Virus genome (UHGV): UHGV-0121367
Reading direction: 5' to 3' (one strand)
Origin: a virus
DNA length: 19,303 nucleotides
Made by a program: the position numbers and the translations under genes
The notes under the pieces: model-generated
What the model saw: the letters and a program-made list of their open reading frames with translations, nothing else
Told to the model about the DNA's origin: nothing
Databases searched by the model: none
Part shown: positions 9,676 through 17,802 of the stretch, piece after piece
Numbering within the stretch: position 1 is the first letter of the stretch
How the letters are laid out: every line of letters starts with the position of its first letter

Positions 9676-10386
9676 ATGCGCCAGAAAACCATTGATGCCA
9701 TCATGGCACACGCTGCAGCGGAATATCCGCGAGAGTGCTGCGGCGTGGTGGCACAGAAAAGCCGGGTTGAGCGCTATTTTCCCTGTCGTAATCTCGCAGC
9801 AGAGCCGACTGAACATTTTCACCTGTCCCCCGAAGATTACGCAGCGGCAGAAGACTGGGGGACGGTGGTGGCCATTGTTCACAGCCATCCTGATGCGACG
9901 ACGCAGGCCAGCGAGCTGGATAAGGCGCAGTGTGATGCAACGCTGCTGCCCTGGCATATTGTGAGCTGGCCAGAGGGGGATTTACGTACCATTCAGCCAC
10001 GCGGGGAGCTGCCATTGCTGGAGCGTCCGTTCGTGCTTGGCCACTTCGATTGCTGGGGTCTGGTAATGAGCTATTTCCGGCAGACCCACGGTATCGAGCT
10101 CCACGATTACCGGGTGGATTATCCCTGGTGGGAAAACGACTACCCGGACAATTTCTATCAGGAGTGCTGGTACGAGTGCGGATTCAGGGAGTTTGATGGC
10201 CCGCCTCAGGAAGGGGACCTCATCATCATGCAGGTCCAGGCCGATAAGTGGAATCACGCGGGGATCCTGCTTGAGGGCAATATGCTACTGCATCATTTGT
10301 ACGGTCATCTTAGCCAGCGCGTGCCATATGGTGGCTACTGGCAGGAAAGAACAATGAAAGTACTTCGGTACAAAGTATTTTGTTAA
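9676..10386 (+). CDS. K: Tail tip assembly protein K (N-terminal JAB/MPN metalloprotease-like domain plus C-terminal NlpC/P60-like domain)
   Basis: 236-aa ORF with an AGGAG RBS. The JAMM-type motif HSHPDATTQASELD (HxHx7Sx2D) is present. A downstream Cys/His-containing region (GHFDCWGLV ... NHAGILL) is consistent with an NlpC/P60 fold, as in lambda gpK. Confidence 0.9.
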   Translation: MRQKTIDAIMAHAAAEYPRECCGVVAQKSRVERYFPCRNLAAEPTEHFHLSPEDYAAAEDWGTVVAIVHSHPDATTQASELDKAQCDATLLPWHIVSWPEGDLRTIQPRGELPLLERPFVLGHFDCWGLVMSYFRQTHGIELHDYRVDYPWWENDYPDNFYQECWYECGFREFDGPPQEGDLIIMQVQADKWNHAGILLEGNMLLHHLYGHLSQRVPYGGYWQERTMKVLRYKVFC

Positions 10387-10473
10387 TTCTATAGTGGTTA
10401 AGTTGTTAATTACTCACTCCATAACTTCATGTTAGTATTCCTCTGATATTTTCAATGAAAGGGAAGCTTAATT

Positions 10474-10869
10474 GTGAAAAAAATATTGTTCTCTGGTCTT
10501 GTGGTGCTTGCCACCGCTGGATGTGCTGATAATAGGCCAATGCCGGTATTAGATACTAAGCCTGTCACATGTTCATCAGAGGCTGAATGTAGTTATCTTT
10601 GGTCGAAGGTTCCTCAGCATTTGGAGTTTGCAACAAAAATGAGAGTAGAATCAGCTAACGATACATTTATAACAACATTCCCACCTATTGATACAAGGCA
10701 ACTTGCAGGACGGGCATCTAAGGTTAAACAGTCCGGCGATACGGCAATAAATGCTGAATTCCAATGCCATCGACATTATGGGCAGAAGGATTGTGAAAGG
10801 GCGGTAATTAATGCTACAAATTTCTTTAATCAAGCAATGAGCATTGAAAAGAAACATTTTAATAAATAA
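10474..10869 (+). CDS. Moron-encoded probable outer-membrane lipoprotein of unknown function (131 aa, GTG start)
   Basis: N-terminus MKKILFSGLVVLATAGC has a signal peptide and lipobox-like TAGC. Residue +2 is Ala, so outer-membrane sorting is expected by the E. coli rule. Four further Cys. The gene is clearly AT-richer than its flanks (by eye) and is followed by a strong intrinsic terminator. It is inserted between K and I, which are adjacent in lambda. Confidence 0.7.
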   Translation: MKKILFSGLVVLATAGCADNRPMPVLDTKPVTCSSEAECSYLWSKVPQHLEFATKMRVESANDTFITTFPPIDTRQLAGRASKVKQSGDTAINAEFQCHRHYGQKDCERAVINATNFFNQAMSIEKKHFNK

Positions 10870-10893
10870 ACACCTAAATAAATCAACCAAATT

Positions 10894-10917
10894 AAACCGC
10901 TTCGGCGGTTTTTTTTT
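10894..10917 (+). terminator. Rho-independent terminator after the lipoprotein moron
   Basis: Stem aaaccgc (10894-10900), UUCG-type loop ttcg, stem gcggttt (10905-10911), then a T-run to 10917. Confidence 0.8.
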
Positions 10918-10932
10918 ACGTGGGGGGATTAT

Positions 10933-11520
10933 ATGCAAGAGGTCATGAGTCGAATTGAATTAGGCAGTGTTCTTGGAAAAACGTTTGGCAAAGTTCACTA
11001 CCGTCTGATATCCCGCGTAAGCGAAGCAGGCGTTGCACTCGCAAAAACCATTCCTGGATTTGAGCAGTTTATGATTTCCAGCCAACGCCGTGGGCTCACA
11101 TACTCCGTGTTTAAGGGTAAAAAAAACATCGGTGTGGATGACCTTGGCTTCCCGATTACCGGCGAGGTTATTCGCATTGTTCCGGTAATCATCGGGAGTA
11201 AAAAAGCCGGTTTGATTCAAACTATCCTGGGCGCAGTATTAGTGATTGCATCGATCTGGATGCCAGGTCTGAGTATAGCTGCCAGCAATATGATGTTTGC
11301 TGCTGGTGCGTCCATAACGCTGGGGGGGGTAGTTCAGATGTTATCCCCTCAGGCTACAGGGCTGGCCAGCAAACAGAGCTCAGATAACCGCGCCTCATAC
11401 GCGTTCGGCGGAGTCACAAACACCGCTGCGCAGGGCTACCCGGTACCACTTCTTTATGGTCGCCGGCGAATCGGCGGTGCGATTATTTCTGGCGGGATAT
11501 ATGTCGAAGATCAGCAGTAA
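10933..11520 (+). CDS. I: Tail tip assembly protein I
   Basis: 195-aa ORF. The central and C-terminal parts (hydrophobic Gly/Ala-rich segment ...LGGVVQMLSPQA..., then ...AQGYPVPLLYGRRRIGG...) match lambda gpI. The N-terminus is shorter and divergent. Confidence 0.85.
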   Translation: MQEVMSRIELGSVLGKTFGKVHYRLISRVSEAGVALAKTIPGFEQFMISSQRRGLTYSVFKGKKNIGVDDLGFPITGEVIRIVPVIIGSKKAGLIQTILGAVLVIASIWMPGLSIAASNMMFAAGASITLGGVVQMLSPQATGLASKQSSDNRASYAFGGVTNTAAQGYPVPLLYGRRRIGGAIISGGIYVEDQQ

Positions 11521-11540
11521 GCTAAGTTAAGGAGATGTGT

Positions 11541-11690
11541 ATGTCTTTTGAGTCACGAGTAGAAAAAACTGAAAATGAAACATCTGAAGTTAATGAAACG
11601 GTCCCGCATGAGACCGTAGAGTACGATGCTTCAATGACATTAGGCGTCAATAAGCTTCATATTTTTGACGATGTCTTGAATTTGTGGTGA
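11541..11690 (+). CDS. Small acidic hypothetical protein (49 aa) in the AT-rich I-J island
   Basis: ATG at 11541 with AAGGAG at 11528-11533 (7-nt spacer). Translation MSFESRVEKTENETSEVNETVPHETVEYDASMTLGVNKLHIFDDVLNLW is about 30 percent Asp/Glu. Too short for the ORF track. Its 3' end overlaps the convergent minus-strand ORF by 51 nt. Confidence 0.35.
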   Translation: MSFESRVEKTENETSEVNETVPHETVEYDASMTLGVNKLHIFDDVLNLW

Positions 11691-11855
11691 GTTTGTCTTT
11701 GATAGGATTTCAATAACTTGTTGCCTTGTATCTACTGGCAATGCTGCTGTTAATACCATTGTAACTTGTCTTAGAGCCACAATTTCTAAAGCGATTTCTC
11801 TAGGAATATTTTCGTCAAGAGTAAATCTAAAATCCACGAACTTTTCTTCGATCAT
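11640..11855 (-). CDS. Hypothetical 71-aa protein encoded antisense to the late operon in the I-J island
   Basis: ORF track 11640..11855 (-). ATG preceded by GGAG with a 7-nt spacer on the minus strand. AT-rich codon usage unlike the flanking tail genes. No signal peptide and no family I can recognise. Confidence 0.45.
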   Translation of the reverse strand: MIEEKFVDFRFTLDENIPREIALEIVALRQVTMVLTAALPVDTRQQVIEILSKTNSPQIQDIVKNMKLIDA

Positions 11856-11986
11856 CTTATTACTCCATTTTAACCGGGTACTTCAGCCATCCCTCGGTCA
11901 GTTAACGCCAGAGGCCTACCACTGGCGGGCTGAGCTTACACATTAACCAGGGATTCCTGTTACCAACAGCCTGATATTTAAACAGT

Positions 11987-12010
11987 AGCCGCCTTCGGGT
12001 GGCTTTTTTT
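11987..12010 (+). terminator. Rho-independent terminator on + strand immediately upstream of J
   Basis: Stem agccgcc (11987-11993), loop ttcg, stem ggtggct (11998-12004, one G:U pair), then a T-run 12004-12010. The J start codon is at 12022. Confidence 0.7.
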
Positions 12011-12021
12011 ATGGACGCGAT

Positions 12022-15000
12022 ATGGCTACAGAGAAAGTATTAAAGGGGCGCAAAGGCGGCAAATCCAGTTCACGAACTCCTACCGAACAGCCTGATGATC
12101 TGCAATCTGTAGCGAAGGCAAAAATCCTCGTTGCGCTTGGGGAAGGGGAGTTCGCAGGGCAGCTAACCGGCAAAGATATCTACCTGGACGGAACGGCGCT
12201 GGAGAATGCCGACGGTTCCCAAAACTTCAGCGGCGTGACGTGGGAGTTTCGCGCGGGGACGCAGGCTCAAAAATATATTCAGGGTATTCCCGGTACCGAA
12301 AACGAAATCAGCGTGGGAACTGAGGTATCAAGCGCTACAGCCTGGACGCGCACGTTTACCAATACGCAGCTTTCAGCAGTTCGTCTGCGTCTGAAATGGC
12401 CCTCGCTTTTCAAACAGGAAGACGACGGAGATCTGGTGGGTTACTCGGTCAATTATGCGATTGACCTGCAGACGGACGGCGGCACATGGCAGACGGTACT
12501 CAATACCAGCGTGACCGGCAAAACGACGTCTGGTTATGAGCGCAGCCACCGTATCGATTTACCGCAAGCTGGCAGCACCTGGACAATACGTCTGCGTAAG
12601 ATTACCTCTGATGCCAACAGCGCGAAGATCGGCGACACGATGACGCTGCAGAGCTTCACCGAGGTGATTGACGCCAAGTTACGATATCCAAACACAGCGC
12701 TACTCTACATCGAATTCGATTCAAGTCAGTTTAACGGCTCTATCCCGCAGATCTCCTGCGAGCCCCGCGGCCGTGTTATCCGCGTTCCAGATACCTACGA
12801 CCCTGAAACCCGCACTTATAGCGGTACATGGACCGGTGCGTTTAAGTGGGCATGGACGGATAACCCTGCGTGGATTTTTTACGATCTGGTTGTTTCTGAC
12901 CGGTTCGGCCTCGGGCACCGTTTGACCGCTGCGAATATTGATAAATGGACGCTTTATCAGGTTGCCCAGTATTGTGATCAGATGGTACCAGACGGCAAAG
13001 GGGGCAACGGTACCGAACCACGTTATACCTGCAACGTGTACATCCAGGACCGAAACGACGCTTATACAGTCCTGCGTGATTTTGCGGCCATATTCCGTGG
13101 CATGACGTACTGGGGAGGCGATCAGATCGTTGCTCTGGCCGATATGCCCCGAGATGTTGATTACAGCTACACGCGCGCCAACGTTGTTGGCGGTCGCTTC
13201 ACCTATTCAAGCAGCACCACGAAAACCCGCTACACCACAGCGCTGGTTTCATGGTCAGACCCGGGTAACGCTTATGCCGACGCGATGGAGCCGGTATTTG
13301 AGCAGGCGCTGGTAGCGCGATACGGCTTCAATCAGCTGGAAATGACAGCCATCGGCTGCACCAGGCAGTCAGAAGCGAACCGAAAGGGGCGCTGGGGCAT
13401 TCTCACCAACAACAAGGATCGCGTTGTTTCGTTTGATGTCGGGCTGGACGGAAACATTCCGCAGCCTGGCTACATCATCGCCGTGGAAGACGAGCTGCTT
13501 TCCGGAAAGGTTATGGGCGGCCGCATCAGCGCCGTTAACGGTCGCGTTATCAAACTTGACCGCGTAGCTGATGCAGCACCAGGTGATCGCCTTATTCTCA
13601 ACCTGCCTTCCGGAGCGTCGCAGAGCAGGACCATTCAGGCCGTGAACGGGGAATCAGTCACAGTCACCACGGCATACAGTGAGACGCCACAGGCCGAAGC
13701 TGTTTGGGTGGTTGAATCTGACGAGCTTTACGCGCAGCAATATCGCGTTATCAGCGTTACGGATAATAATGACGGAACGTATTCGATTGCTGGCGCTTTG
13801 CACGATCCGGATAAATATGCGCGTATCGATACCGGTGCCATTATCGACCAGCGGCCAATAAGTGTAATTCCGCCCGGTAATCAGTCCCCGCCAGCTAATA
13901 TCGCGATCAGTTCGTTTTCTGTCGTTCAGCAGAATATCAGCGTTGAGACCATGCGCGTCAGCTGGGACCAGGCGAAAAATGCTATCGCGTATGAGGCACA
14001 GTGGCGTCGCAATGACGGGAACTGGGTGAATGTGCCGCGCAGCTCCACCACGTCATTCGATGTTCCGGGGATTTATGCAGGACGCTACCTGGTTCGCGTG
14101 CGTGCCATCAATGCCGCCGAAATTTCATCTGGGTGGGGCTATTCAGAAGAGAAAACGTTGACGGGTAAAGTGGGAAACCCACCGAAGCCGGTTGGCTTCA
14201 TCGCTTCTGAAAACGTGGTATTCGGTATCGAGCTGAACTGGGGATTCCCGGCGAATACCGAAGACACGCTGAAGACGGAAATTCAGTATAGCCTGACCGG
14301 TACCGAGGACGATGCAATGCTGCTGGCCGATGTGCCTTACCCGCAGCGCAAATATCAGCAGATGGGCCTTAAGGCTGGGCAGATTTTCTGGTACCGCGCG
14401 CAACTTGTTGACCGGACCGGTAACGAATCGGGGTATACCGACTGGGTGCGCGGGCAGGCGAGCACCGATGTTTCAGAAATTACGGATGCAATATTCAAAG
14501 AGATTCAGGAAACAGAGGTTTTCAAAAACCTGATCGCCACTGTAGATGAGGATACCAAAAATATTGCCGAACTGACTGATGCGGTCCGGGAAAATGCCGA
14601 CGCGCTGGCAGCTGCAATTATTGACGGGAAACAAACTGCAGAGGATTTGAAATCCAGTACTGAAAATCTGGCAGCAGCGATTCGTGAAAATGCAGATAGT
14701 CTTGCCGCGGCGGTTTCATCTAACAAACAGACCGCTGAAGCTATTATTGCCAATTCTCTCGCGATTACTGATGTCGTATTGCGTCAGACCGCCCAAAACG
14801 GCGCTAATACGGCGCAATTCGAGCAACTACGGGAAGTTGTAGCGACAGAAACTGAAGCTCGCGTGACCGATGTTACCCGTCTCGAAGCTAAGACGAAGGA
14901 TAACGCGGCGGGCATCACTGAGGTTCGACAAGCACTTGCTGATGAAACTCAAGCCCGCGCAACTGCTGTCGATCAGCTTACTGCTGCTACGGACGCGGCG

Positions 15001-16479
15001 GGTAAGGTTGGCGCACAGAACAGCGCGGATATCACATCACTTACCCAAGTTGTTACAGATAGCACCTCTGCGGCCGCTTCACGATTTGATGAGCTTAGCG
15101 CTGCTACTGCCAGCGCTGCGGGCGGCATTCAGAGTAATGCCATCGCTCTGATTAACAACACGTTAGCTCAGGTTAGCCAGCGCAACACCATGACGGTTCA
15201 GTACCTGGACAACAAGGCCGGGATCGAGCGCACACAGGAAGCCATAGCCAACGAGACCGAAGCCCGTGTTGCTGATGTACTGCGCCTTGAAGCTACTACA
15301 GAGCACAACGCAGCTGATATCATTGAAGTGCGTCAAGCTATGTCTGACGAGTCTCAAGCAGTCGCGACGCGTCTTAATGAACTCAATGCTGCTACTAAGA
15401 CTGCCGACTCTAAAGCGGACGCGGCGGGTAAGGTTGGCGCACAAAATGCAGCGAAAATCACAGCGCTTGAGCAGGTTGTGACAGATACAGAATCAGCTAC
15501 AGCGCTGCGACTCGACGAGCTTTCTGCTGCTACTAAAGCTGCCAGCGATAAAGCAGATGAGGCGGAACAAGCCAGTACTCGCAATGCCGCAGAAATCAGC
15601 GAGTTGGATCAAGTGGTCACGGATTTGGACAGCGCCACAGCGTTACGTTTTGACGAAATCTCAGCAGAAATCGCAGATCAGAGCAGTAATGTGGGCGTCA
15701 TTAAAGGAGGCATTCAGAATAACGCGATTGCAGTAATTCAGCAGACGTTAGCGCAGGTGAATCAGTCGCAGCGAATGAGTGTGCAGTACGGCGACAATAA
15801 AGCAGGGATCGAACGTGTCGATAACGTGATGGCTGATGCAAGCCTGGCTGTGGCTGAGTCACTCAAAACGCTGGATTCAAGTGCAGGAGGTGGTACTGCA
15901 AATACGACTGATTTTGCAAAAACTCTTGCGGATTTCACGCAGGCGTCAGCAACGCGGATTAACTCGCTGACAGTGTCAGTTAATGGGCAGACGACAGTAA
16001 TTGAACAGAACGCACGGGCGGTTGCAGATATCAGCGGAAATCTGAATGCGATGTACAGTATTAAAGTCGCTATCGACTCGAACGGACGGCAATACGCTGC
16101 CGGAATGGGTATCGGAGTCGAAAATACGCCAGCAGGTATGCAGTCGCAGGTGCTGTTCCTGGCTAACCGCTTTGCTGTTATGACTCAGGCCGGTGGTGCG
16201 GTCACGCTGCCATTCGTTATTCAGAATGGCCAGGCCATTATCAGGGATACAGTCATTGGCGACGGGACCATAAGCAATGCAAAAATTGGCAATTACATCC
16301 AGTCGAACAATTATGTTGCCGGCTCTGTTGGCTGGAAACTGGATAAGTCCGGGACGTTTGAGAACTACGGTTCGACAGCTGGGGAGGGAGCCATGAAGCA
16401 GACCAACCAGACAATCAGCGTCAAGGATGGCAACAACGTTCTGAGAGTGCAGGTTGGCCGATTAACGGGGGTGTTCTGA
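12022..16479 (+). CDS. J: Tail tip attachment / host specificity protein J (central tail fibre), enlarged relative to lambda J
   Basis: 1485-aa ORF. The N-terminal two thirds are collinear with lambda gpJ motifs (...YPNTALL...QISCEPRGRVIRVPDTYDPETRTYSGTWTG...YCDQMVPDGKGG...). A long Ala-rich repeat region follows, and the C-terminal region is unlike the lambda LamB-binding end. Confidence 0.95.
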   Translation: MATEKVLKGRKGGKSSSRTPTEQPDDLQSVAKAKILVALGEGEFAGQLTGKDIYLDGTALENADGSQNFSGVTWEFRAGTQAQKYIQGIPGTENEISVGTEVSSATAWTRTFTNTQLSAVRLRLKWPSLFKQEDDGDLVGYSVNYAIDLQTDGGTWQTVLNTSVTGKTTSGYERSHRIDLPQAGSTWTIRLRKITSDANSAKIGDTMTLQSFTEVIDAKLRYPNTALLYIEFDSSQFNGSIPQISCEPRGRVIRVPDTYDPETRTYSGTWTGAFKWAWTDNPAWIFYDLVVSDRFGLGHRLTAANIDKWTLYQVAQYCDQMVPDGKGGNGTEPRYTCNVYIQDRNDAYTVLRDFAAIFRGMTYWGGDQIVALADMPRDVDYSYTRANVVGGRFTYSSSTTKTRYTTALVSWSDPGNAYADAMEPVFEQALVARYGFNQLEMTAIGCTRQSEANRKGRWGILTNNKDRVVSFDVGLDGNIPQPGYIIAVEDELLSGKVMGGRISAVNGRVIKLDRVADAAPGDRLILNLPSGASQSRTIQAVNGESVTVTTAYSETPQAEAVWVVESDELYAQQYRVISVTDNNDGTYSIAGALHDPDKYARIDTGAIIDQRPISVIPPGNQSPPANIAISSFSVVQQNISVETMRVSWDQAKNAIAYEAQWRRNDGNWVNVPRSSTTSFDVPGIYAGRYLVRVRAINAAEISSGWGYSEEKTLTGKVGNPPKPVGFIASENVVFGIELNWGFPANTEDTLKTEIQYSLTGTEDDAMLLADVPYPQRKYQQMGLKAGQIFWYRAQLVDRTGNESGYTDWVRGQASTDVSEITDAIFKEIQETEVFKNLIATVDEDTKNIAELTDAVRENADALAAAIIDGKQTAEDLKSSTENLAAAIRENADSLAAAVSSNKQTAEAIIANSLAITDVVLRQTAQNGANTAQFEQLREVVATETEARVTDVTRLEAKTKDNAAGITEVRQALADETQARATAVDQLTAATDAAGKVGAQNSADITSLTQVVTDSTSAAASRFDELSAATASAAGGIQSNAIALINNTLAQVSQRNTMTVQYLDNKAGIERTQEAIANETEARVADVLRLEATTEHNAADIIEVRQAMSDESQAVATRLNELNAATKTADSKADAAGKVGAQNAAKITALEQVVTDTESATALRLDELSAATKAASDKADEAEQASTRNAAEISELDQVVTDLDSATALRFDEISAEIADQSSNVGVIKGGIQNNAIAVIQQTLAQVNQSQRMSVQYGDNKAGIERVDNVMADASLAVAESLKTLDSSAGGGTANTTDFAKTLADFTQASATRINSLTVSVNGQTTVIEQNARAVADISGNLNAMYSIKVAIDSNGRQYAAGMGIGVENTPAGMQSQVLFLANRFAVMTQAGGAVTLPFVIQNGQAIIRDTVIGDGTISNAKIGNYIQSNNYVAGSVGWKLDKSGTFENYGSTAGEGAMKQTNQTISVKDGNNVLRVQVGRLTGVF
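14584..14745 (+). repeat. Short 96-bp (32-aa) direct repeat in J encoding RENAD(A/S)LAAA...KQTAE
   Basis: cgggaaaatgccgacgcgctggcagctgca at about 14587 and cgtgaaaatgcagatagtcttgccgcggcg at about 14683. Confidence 0.6.
14849..15830 (+). repeat. Diverged in-frame tandem repeats inside J (unit about 405-426 bp, two to three copies)
   Basis: Near-identical 23-mer gcggcgggtaaggttggcgcaca at 14995 and 15421 (period 426 bp). Related blocks gaaactgaagctcgcgtgaccgatgtta (14849) and gagaccgaagcccgtgttgctgatgta (15253). A third partial copy around 15560-15830 repeats the ...IQ(S/N)NAIA(L/V)I..TLAQV.Q...M.VQY.DNKAGIER... module. Confidence 0.8.
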
Positions 16480-16480
16480 T

Positions 16481-16783
16481 ATGGCTTATGGAATACAGAC
16501 CTGGGATGCTTCGGGAAACCCCAACAACTACGGAATCAAGCCCGTTTCCGTTGTTGGACGTATACAACTTGCCGCCGGACAAAACTCCGGCAGCTGGTCT
16601 TTCACTGTACCCTCAGGAATGAAGGTCGGTTTTGCGCTCTCACTTGATGAAGGAGGTAACAGCGTAGGGAGGAGCATTGTCGCGTCAGGGAACACAATAA
16701 CCGTAACCGCAGCCTCTTCTGTGGGCCTGGGTAATTACCCGGCCTCTAAATGTGAGGTGGTCGTTTTCATGGAGAAAGCATAA
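16481..16783 (+). CDS. Hypothetical protein (100 aa) translationally coupled to J, likely tail-associated
   Basis: The start is 2 nt after the J stop. Codon usage is like the flanking structural genes. It shares the motifs G-x-x-x-W-D-A-S-G and S-G-S-W with the downstream ORF. Confidence 0.7.
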   Translation: MAYGIQTWDASGNPNNYGIKPVSVVGRIQLAAGQNSGSWSFTVPSGMKVGFALSLDEGGNSVGRSIVASGNTITVTAASSVGLGNYPASKCEVVVFMEKA

Positions 16784-17457
16784 TGGCCGAATTTGGCGCG
16801 ATGATATTAATGGATAACGGGAATCCCTTTGTAACGCCACAATCAACGCCTTTCTGTCTTTACGGGAAGTATACCTTCAATTCATCCGCGAATGGCAGTT
16901 CTCAGCAGGTTGCTCAAAATATCGCTTTAAACGCTGATTACCCAGTGATGGTTTTTATCAAAACCACCAATACAGCACAGCCCACTCCGGTTATGTCTTA
17001 CAGGAACGGCGGTAATGTGTATGTTGCTGGTGTTAATCCCTACAACCAAAGTTTCACTTTAACGGCGTACGTTTTTGCCATATTCCCGCAGATATTACCG
17101 AAATGGGGTTTGGCAATATGGGATGCGAGCGGAAAGCTTGTGTTAACTAATGAGTCCCGTGTGCTATCAGACCTGCAGACGGTTGGCACGCCTGGTGCAA
17201 ACGGCGGGATAAATATTGACCAGACGCTGAGCGGGTCATGGGCCGTTGCACCTGCTCAGTTGGGTCAGACCATCATTGTGAATAATTCAACCCAGCCTCC
17301 GACTATCTACACGATAAATGCTTATTCTTCATGCAGGTTTGACGGGGCCAATACGAGGATAAACGCAGGGGGGACCTCCACTGGGGCAGGTTCACCTGGA
17401 GGGGGAACGAATACTGGCATTTCATTAACCGCCATAAATACAGCGGCCTATGATTGA
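16783..17457 (+). CDS. Hypothetical protein (224 aa) with Gly-rich C-terminus, apparently built from two copies of the module in the upstream ORF
   Basis: Start overlaps the upstream stop (TAATG). The N-terminus MAEFGAMILMDNGNP parallels MAYGIQTWDASGNP of the preceding ORF. The internal segment KWGLAIWDASGKLV...LSGSWAV repeats the same motif. Confidence 0.72.
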   Translation: MAEFGAMILMDNGNPFVTPQSTPFCLYGKYTFNSSANGSSQQVAQNIALNADYPVMVFIKTTNTAQPTPVMSYRNGGNVYVAGVNPYNQSFTLTAYVFAIFPQILPKWGLAIWDASGKLVLTNESRVLSDLQTVGTPGANGGINIDQTLSGSWAVAPAQLGQTIIVNNSTQPPTIYTINAYSSCRFDGANTRINAGGTSTGAGSPGGGTNTGISLTAINTAAYD

Positions 17458-17568: not shown

Positions 17569-17802
17569 ATGAGAAAACTGATTATCTGCATGGCAGGCGC
17601 TGTCATGCTTACAGGATGCGCTGGCGTAATTGAGAAACAGGAACCAGTTTGCAGCGGCACTGCAATCGTTGGCGGTCAGGAAACTACGGTTCAGATTTAC
17701 GGTGTGCGTAAACAAAACAACCAGACGCAGTACCGGGCTGGATATCCTTTCAGCTGGCGCTGGGTAAGTGCGAATACATTTACCGAAACAACCTGCAAAT
17801 AA
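17569..17802 (+). CDS. Small outer-membrane lipoprotein (77 aa); candidate Cor/Llp-like superinfection exclusion protein
   Basis: N-terminus MRKLIICMAGAVMLTGC has a canonical lipobox LTGC with Ala at +2. Two further Cys (C28, C76). Size and position (downstream of J, before the tail fibre) match Cor-type exclusion lipoproteins of lambdoid phages. The functional call is inference. Confidence 0.6.
   Translation: MRKLIICMAGAVMLTGCAGVIEKQEPVCSGTAIVGGQETTVQIYGVRKQNNQTQYRAGYPFSWRWVSANTFTETTCK

Follow-up and report, generated by a model that had tools for sequence, protein, structure and literature searches.

What is a stretch of AT-rich DNA doing between K and I, two tail-tip assembly genes that adjoin each other in related phages? 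We addressed this question in the virus genome UHGV-0121367, for which one strand of 19.3 kb (19,303 nucleotides) was analyzed; this whole stretch is referred to as the window. It represents the late region of a lambdoid prophage of E. coli, with genes in the order portal, protease, decoration protein, capsid, FI, FII, Z, U, V, G/T, H, M, L, K, I, J, cor and side tail fibres. Sequence comparisons indicate that the DNA in question is a 557-bp AT-rich cassette inserted into the K/I overlap of a tail module of the HK97/HK022/N15 type in an E. coli prophage. They support its reading as a moron, that is, as a self-contained unit, horizontally acquired and deviant in composition, that lies between K and I and codes for a cysteine-containing lipoprotein. 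For the function of this lipoprotein, we give an even chance to superinfection exclusion at the level of the cell envelope. The same cassette was found at 99.8% identity in an annotated prophage of E. coli MSB1_9D, in which the gene order matches that of the window; E. coli EC23HZZ201 is a further carrier.

The insert and its two flanking genes are located as follows:
10376..10932, + strand: insert read as a moron, 557 bp, 37.3% guanine-plus-cytosine (GC); from blastn junction mapping against HK225, N15, HK97 and HK022, alignments and composition statistics
9676..10386, + strand: gene K, tail-tip assembly, JAB/MPN and NlpC/P60 domains, left flank; Pfam PF14464 and PF00877, phrog_30
10933..11520, + strand: gene I, tail-tip assembly, right flank; phrog_32, E = 2.3e-71

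As in lambda, the K and I genes of HK225 and N15 overlap, whereas 546 bp separate the two genes in the window. The K gene of HK225 is 93% identical to that of the window at the DNA level, and blastn homology between the two phages ends at position 10375 within K and resumes exactly at 10933, the start codon of I; homology to the I gene of N15 likewise restarts exactly at 10933. The window thus has 557 bp where HK225 has a 19-bp K/I overlap. The left edge of the insert lies at 10376, inside the last codons of K, so that the insert supplies the 3' end of this gene: the product of K ends in RYKVFC-stop in the window versus RYKDVMAGETCRK-stop in HK225, with a new tail of three residues and a new stop codon. 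Gene I has its own G-rich ribosome-binding site (10922-10927), which replaces the translational overlap with K. The exchange of 19 bp for 557 bp therefore left K with a new tail and stop codon and I with a separate ribosome-binding site. A first-pass annotation of this DNA, made from the sequence alone, had placed AT-rich extra DNA at 10387-10932. The extra DNA itself is borne out both by the GC statistics and by the overlap of K and I in HK225 and N15, and its right edge stands, but its actual start lies further left, at 10376 within K.

The insert is the stretch of lowest GC in the 19.3 kb (37.3% versus 52.8% for the whole window; z = -3.7 among all 557-bp windows), and only 0.2% of the 557-bp windows are as low. 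GC at third codon positions was 0.30 in the lipoprotein open reading frame (ORF) and 0.63 in K. The lipoprotein gene is absent from the closely related functional phages HK225, N15 and mEp237. The possibility that the gene occurs in all relatives and is ordinary in composition was therefore not borne out, since HK225 and N15 lack it and its DNA is the most deviant of the window. A minus-strand ORF that overlaps the lipoprotein gene and the terminator (10651-10938, 95 amino acids (aa), TTG start) is presumably spurious.

The gene carried by the insert and its predicted export signal are the following:
10474..10869, + strand: lipoprotein gene, 131 aa including the GTG start, stop codon within these coordinates; from the ORF list, translation and homologues
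10474..10524, + strand: predicted signal peptide of residues 1-16 (MKKILFSGLVVLATAG) and lipid-modified Cys17 (codon 10522-10524); PS51257-type pattern

The position of the start codon is conserved, being ATG in homologues of 66% identity and GTG in the window. Lipoproteins were recognized by a rule of the PROSITE PS51257 type, namely a basic n-region, a hydrophobic h-region and a lipobox [LIVMFWSTAG]2-[LIVMFYSTAGCQ]-[AGS]-C within about 40 N-terminal residues. The N-terminus of the window protein, MKKILFSGLVVLATAG followed by C17 and with the lipobox ATAG before this cysteine, agrees with the pattern, as do 139 of the 167 family representatives, and Cys17 is invariant in 71 aligned homologues. 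The predicted mature protein comprises C17-K131 (115 aa). Asp at the residue after the lipidated cysteine (+2) is an inner-membrane retention signal in Enterobacteria. The window protein has Ala at this position, and the 139 scored family members have mostly Ala as well (111; V 11, S 5, T 4) and no Asp, for which reason sorting to the outer membrane is predicted, a location that seems reasonable. The mature protein has four further cysteines (C33, C39, C98 and C107), all of them invariant in close homologues. Among the 71 distant homologues C33, C39, T68 and C98 never vary, C107 is kept in at least 90% and W43 is nearly invariant. Translation and conservation throughout the family thus confirm what had been read from the single sequence, a 131-aa ORF with signal peptide, lipobox and four further cysteines, and a lipoprotein signal is present across the family.

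Three elements that may serve the expression of this gene were located within the insert:
10430..10438, + strand: extended -10-like element TGtTAGTAT (TG at 10430-10431, hexamer TAGTAT at 10433-10438); read from the sequence and its conservation
10460..10466, + strand: Shine-Dalgarno sequence AGGGAAG, 7 nt before the GTG; from the sequence and alignments
10894..10917, + strand: intrinsic terminator, stem AAACCGC, loop TTCG and stem GCGGTTT (10894-10911), T9 run (10909-10917); terminator scan and RNA fold

The extended -10-like element lies 35 nt 5' of the start codon and has no good -35 element. A motif TGTTA(G/A)(T/G/A)AT is kept at an equal distance upstream of homologues of 66% identity that lie at the junction of H and M (loci L014-L016), where the flanking DNA is unrelated to the K and I flanks of the window, so that homologous cassettes at both the K-I and the H-M junctions conserve it. 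In a distant subfamily, LPP2 (phrog_16082), TGATAGGAT or TTTAGGATT is conserved upstream of the genes at K-I and I-J sites. The TGTTAGTAT extended -10-like element hence travels with the gene across insertion sites and subfamilies, and motif and leader are retained even between subfamilies of only ~28% protein identity. The Shine-Dalgarno sequence belongs to this common leader, ACTTTTAC...GGGG.AGGGA.ATG. On this comparative evidence we regard the element as a putative promoter.

The T9 run of the terminator finishes 15 nt before the start codon of I. The terminator scan is by itself not significant (5 found versus 3.0 +/- 1.7 expected). A hairpin occurs at the equivalent position in HK97, HK022, mEp506 and CharmingMan, and its pairing is kept despite changes on both arms of the stem (CCGC/GCGG in the window versus CCACC/GGTGG in HK97 and HK022). 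Together with the 7-bp stem and the T9 run, these pairing-preserving changes confirm the proposed UUCG-loop terminator of the insert. Judging from the alignments, it is a positionally shared right border of differing K-I cargoes and not unique to the insert of the window. A terminator with a different stem is also found 3' of the homologue at the H-M junction (L014-L016). No RNA family of Rfam was detected anywhere in the window.

As these alignments demonstrate, promoter-like element, leader, ORF and terminator recur together at other junctions in other prophages. The definition of morons was drawn from the comparison of the HK97 and HK022 genomes, and a mobile unit of this make-up fits it (PMC3594210). 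In the window, the unit is extra DNA between genes that are adjacent in relatives, deviates in base composition and has its own terminator. Insert, composition, terminator and recurrence of the unit thus support the architecture of a lysogenic-conversion or exclusion-type moron that the first-pass annotation had proposed.

The same annotation had regarded the position between K and I as unusual, which does not hold, since HK022 gp20, HK97, CharmingMan and larger islands share the slot. Gene 20 of HK022 lies exactly at K-I and is annotated in GenBank as "moron gene product" (AF069308/AF069529, the GenBank records cited for HK97/HK022), mEp506 carries gp20, and HK97 has homologous K-I DNA with an annotated terminator. 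CharmingMan carries an unrelated 136-aa "lipoprotein" at the junction. Comparison with related prophages thus revealed that the junction is recurrently occupied by varied cargo, and because differing cargoes share the hairpin, K-I appears to be a hotspot of cassette exchange whose right border is conserved. The K-I islands of three further loci encode a Fic-domain protein (L089, 4292-5855), a YafO toxin with DUF6246 and a tail-fibre-N/SASA esterase-like protein (L064, 1388-6784), and S24/HTH repressor, Bro-N/P22_AR_C antirepressor-like and ORF6N genes, reminiscent of P22 immI (L014, 8327-11480).

Next we describe the family to which the lipoprotein belongs. Word-indexed searches retrieved five close clusters (63-98% identity) in E. 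coli, Enterobacter hormaechei and Citrobacter amalonaticus, and LPP2 in E. coli, Enterobacter, Pantoea and Phytobacter. The window type and LPP2 share ~28% identity and are homologous according to hhalign (97.9% probability, E = 3e-13). An exhaustive profile search yielded 1,417 clusters at 50% identity with E <= 1e-3, 596 of them at E <= 1e-10. Among 5,426 complete E. coli genomes, LPP2 was present in 255 and the window type in two, always annotated as "hypothetical protein". A tblastn search of the window protein against 50,697 GenBank phage records (E <= 0.01) found only two records with any family member, both of them induced E. coli prophages; the family has consequently never been studied in a model phage. 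A literature search found no mention of the RefSeq accession WP_053263847. A homologue search with a broad alignment was dominated by a PDZ domain and gave no names, and scans of genome contigs with two family alignments gave no confirmed loci. In one member (P0045) the lipoprotein domain is present twice in tandem.

The protein identical to that of the window was indexed in ~300 blocks of the assembly collection, and all eight distinct contexts that were read have the order H-M-L-K, lipoprotein gene, I. The Citrobacter homologue also lies at K-I. A sample of 69 IMG/VR loci with a family member comprised six at K-I, three between H and M and ~55 LPP2 genes in the nin region, flanked by hok and ydfU-rusA-Q; in the remaining loci, genes of the LPP2 type lay either immediately 5' of I or in the I-J interval. 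More distant members were found directly behind or overlapping CI-type HTH/S24 repressors (P0022, P0023 and P0026), within an S24-HIRAN-lipoprotein operon (P0096), on the opposite strand adjoining a probable tape-measure gene of a different tail type (P0024), between a DUF1833 protein and I/J analogues of a third tail type (P0048), and among short, mostly unannotated genes (P0035 and P0089). Family members therefore occupy junctions within the tail modules of three distinct types of siphophage tail. All sampled contexts whose nature could be recognized were phage or prophage slots, so that within this sample the family is placed in phage DNA only.

Two of these contexts deserve separate description. 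P0024 and an Mrr_cat (restriction endonuclease-like) gene make up a pair on one strand, in antisense to the tail genes (L085, 6371-6937), and the two possibly form a two-gene defence "reverse moron". In E. coli GCA_029840135.1 (L100, 3854-5016), an insertion sequence with an rve-family transposase stands at the place of I and the lipoprotein gene is intact; this prophage is probably defective and has retained the moron.

A confident AlphaFold2 (AF2) model built from a 17-sequence alignment (predicted local distance difference test score, pLDDT, 83.4; predicted template modelling score, pTM, 0.73) has a tether of ~14 residues followed by a strand, a helix, four strands and a long helix (beta-alpha-beta4-alpha). 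Each cysteine pair brackets a strand-to-helix junction of the model, which points to two probable local disulfides, C33-C39 and C98-C107. The model has the generic fold of a helix-grip-like alpha+beta domain. Its best structural neighbours, BamC and KA1, are weak (Foldseek E ~1e-2, template modelling (TM) score ~0.4, 11-18% identity), and unrelated helix-grip folds (KA1, START and Bet v 1) reach comparably weak scores. PHROG matches of the window protein were limited to phrog_16082 (E = 7.8e-9), phrog_13472 and phrog_23071, the first aligning over nearly the full length (residues 1-118 of 131 with profile positions 1-126 of 130). No virion structural protein was matched in Pfam, PHROG, NCBIfam, PDB or the structure searches. 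Neither Pfam Lambda_Bor nor phrog_1119 was matched, in agreement with the earlier impression that the protein is neither Bor nor Cor.

What, then, does the lipoprotein do? Repressor operons, tail-tip junctions and the nin region are typical slots of lysogen-expressed genes, and known exclusion genes lie beside repressors and tail-tip genes. Since the family is confined to prophages, protection of the lysogen at the envelope appears a probable role; envelope-level superinfection exclusion as the actual function, a reading reached by association, inference and analogy only, stands in our judgement at about one half. The cassette would be transcribed on its own in the lysogen, as the presence of distant homologues in CI-type repressor operons indirectly suggests, and during lytic growth it would also be read through by Q-antiterminated late transcription. 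After export, the precursor would receive its lipid at Cys17 and be cut by signal peptidase II, and because the +2 residue is Ala the Lol pathway would sort the lipoprotein to the inner leaflet of the outer membrane. The ~14-residue tether would there hold a compact helix-grip-like domain of ~100 aa in the periplasm, stapled by its two local disulfides. In this position the lipoprotein could protect the lysogen, and the progeny released from lysing cells, from phage attack at the envelope, in the manner of Cor, Llp and the mEpimmI Lpp proteins: it would either bind an outer-membrane receptor from within the periplasm and inactivate it, or keep the incoming tail tip and DNA from passing. Cor inactivates FhuA, and HK97 gp15, an exclusion protein encoded by a moron in the tail operon, blocks DNA entry (PMC3594210). 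In the case of mEpimmI coliphages, expression of lipoproteins encoded among their structural genes excludes phages, and the authors of that study link each type of lipoprotein to phages dependent on OmpA or LamB (PMC11893012).

Several results weigh against superinfection exclusion or against parts of the route just described. A sigma-70 consensus scan (strict two-hexamer -35/-10) of 10376-10473 found no promoter. The window protein matched no model in Pfam, NCBIfam or PADLOC (PADLOC-DB v2; threshold E <= 1 for Pfam and PADLOC), a PDB sequence-profile search returned only noise (E >= 0.36), and PDB and BFVD held no significant match. With regard to defence models in particular, PADLOC-DB v2 searched at E <= 1 gave none for either the window protein or the family member P0008, and scans of close and 71 distant homologues against Pfam, NCBIfam and PADLOC left the domain without a model, matching only a fused PDZ. 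This C-terminal PDZ domain is present in 14 of the 71 aligned distant members and hints at a more general envelope role. The prophage already has cor (17569-17802), and a second receptor blocker is not obviously needed. Moreover, the identical lipoprotein is accompanied by at least six J lengths and C-terminal variants: J has 1151-1396 aa in the other prophages with this lipoprotein, and their C-terminal parts are only 37-66% identical. With a J of 1151-1485 aa when the window is included, a receptor blocker made to fit strictly the J of its own phage becomes less plausible. Finally, a host-fitness role of the Bor type fits the architecture equally well.

That last alternative survives best among those considered, although we regard it as unlikely. 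The lipoprotein would be a Bor/Iss-like conversion factor in host fitness or virulence, changing the lysogen's surface or envelope, for instance its resistance to serum, its adhesion or how well it tolerates stress or antimicrobials, and having no part in exclusion. The architecture is that of lambda bor, a moron for a small outer-membrane lipoprotein presumed to be expressed from the prophage (PMC3594210); the hosts (E. coli, Enterobacter, Citrobacter and Pantoea) come from humans and animals, and the gene is not tied to any one variant of J. However, the protein resembles neither Bor/Iss nor any Pfam family, and the family occurs in phage contexts only, with a preference for the repressor and tail-tip neighbours among which known exclusion genes lie. 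In addition, facing the periplasm is the default for enterobacterial lipoproteins with Ala at +2, which gives no direct access to serum components.

Quite unlikely, in our estimate, is that the family represents a major unrecognised class of prophage outer-membrane lipoproteins with an exclusion mechanism different from those of Cor and Llp, in which, for example, a BamC-like, disulfide-stapled helix-grip domain would bind to a conserved machine of the envelope, or else to the tail tip or tape measure of an incoming phage. Receptor-independent protection of this kind would explain why the identical protein occurs with many J variants and alongside cor. We find it very unlikely that the protein instead modulates a general envelope machine, its BamC-like domain docking on components that build or quality-control outer-membrane proteins (BAM, periplasmic chaperones or proteases) and so altering several of these proteins at once in their level or conformation. 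The BamC-like fold and the PDZ fusions of distant members weakly suggest such a role, but the structural scores are weak and common to unrelated helix-grip folds, there is no sequence similarity to BamC, and the context of the one PDZ-fused member that was examined (P0030, on a short contig) is uninformative. Weakest of all, and highly improbable, is an accessory of the lytic cycle, expressed essentially only in the late tail operon and serving tail-tip assembly, lysis timing or the virion: the gene has the orientation of the late operon, lies between two tail-tip assembly genes and has no canonical promoter in the consensus scan, but the functional relatives HK225, N15 and mEp237 do without it, a lipidated exported protein cannot join cytoplasmic tail assembly, homologues lie outside late operons in repressor operons and the nin region, and its own terminator and conserved -10-like element argue for autonomous transcription.

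The surroundings of the moron hold further accessory DNA. An island between I and J (11521-12021) has the second lowest GC of the window (40.6%). It contains a minus-strand ORF of 71 aa (11640-11855) that is 100% identical to a "DUF2594 containing protein" of mEp506, an overlapping forward ORF of 51 aa (11535-11690) and a terminator (11987-12004) just before J. This slot corresponds to the position of HK97 gp22/gp23 and of HK022 gp22/srb, described as "moron" and "reverse moron". Its cargo varies among prophages with the identical lipoprotein, which have genes of 71, 86, 88, 105 or 210 aa or nothing at all. The J gene of the window (12022-16479) is unusually long (1485 aa) and includes a repetitive Ala/Thr/Glu-rich, coiled-coil-like segment at about residues 1000-1250. 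Directly after it (16481-17457) are genes for a 100-aa phrog_557 "outer membrane protein" and a 224-aa phrog_425 "membrane associated protein" of the moron category, which may be further envelope-directed accessory genes. The cor gene downstream of J (phrog_1119, E = 7e-37) lies in a stretch whose AT content ranks third in the window. The next tail-fibre ORF has a listed start of 17768, which overlaps cor and is probably too far upstream.

Much of what prophages contribute to lysogenic conversion and exclusion resides in morons, and most moron cargo is functionally unassigned. The K-I slot, the promoter-gene-terminator architecture and the class of lipoprotein cargo are already textbook matter, and the locus adds nothing conceptually new on morons. 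What is new is a large prophage-restricted lipoprotein family of ~1,400 clusters, with no counterpart in Pfam, NCBIfam, PADLOC or PDB. We consider it a worthwhile, if unremarkable, and well-defined candidate for exclusion screening. If exclusion is its true function, it would provide a new exclusion family and envelope target and be relevant to predicting host range and resistance to phage therapy in Enterobacteriaceae.

How does the window protein compare with known systems? Cor (phi80, N15, HK022 and mEp167; phrog_1119) and Llp of T5 are, like the window protein, products of small moron-type lipoprotein genes in or next to tail and host-range genes. Llp is expressed early in infection and is an outer-membrane lipoprotein that inactivates FhuA. 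Cor is expressed in the lysogen (PMC3594210). Both are the proposed functional model for the window protein, with no sequence relationship to it. The window protein differs from them in being larger (115 aa when mature), in its modelled helix-grip alpha+beta fold and in having no known link to FhuA; its identity with Cor was rejected, since phrog_1119 is not matched and a genuine cor lies elsewhere in the window. Lpp021 and Lpp010 of the mEpimmI coliphages likewise have a lipobox and are encoded by temperate coliphages from within the cluster of structural genes (PMC11893012). They differ in belonging to another phage group and in that exclusion was shown for them on expression from a plasmid; neither of the two phage records matched by tblastn was an mEpimmI genome, a result that bears on similarity to the Lpp proteins only if mEpimmI genomes were included in the collection. 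Bor/Iss also is a small outer-membrane lipoprotein expressed by the prophage from a moron (PMC3594210). It occupies another genomic slot and acts in serum resistance, not in phage exclusion, and the window protein was rejected as a Bor/Iss homologue, as no Pfam family including Lambda_Bor was matched at E <= 1. The Tai (tail assembly interference) systems are also morons of lambdoid phages, and were set aside as irrelevant because their genes lie mainly upstream of the packaging module and act on tail assembly, not at the membrane (PMC11364771).

At the level of structure, the model of the window protein weakly resembles BamC, itself an outer-membrane lipoprotein, and KA1 domains in a two-layer alpha+beta topology of the helix-grip-like kind; both are structural neighbours only, with no sequence similarity to BamC found. 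With respect to position, the closest parallel is HK022 gp20 and the K-I DNA of HK97, which have the exact slot, the same cassette logic and an equivalent hairpin directly upstream of the ribosome-binding site of I; gp20 itself differs, being a 74-aa protein with an N-terminal hydrophobic segment, no lipobox and no BLASTP similarity to the window protein at the threshold used. By descent, the nearest known group is LPP2 (phrog_16082), a true homologue that has the lipobox, the four cysteines and the leader motif in common with the window type, and that, unlike it, usually resides between hok and ydfU-rusA-Q in the nin region rather than in the tail module.

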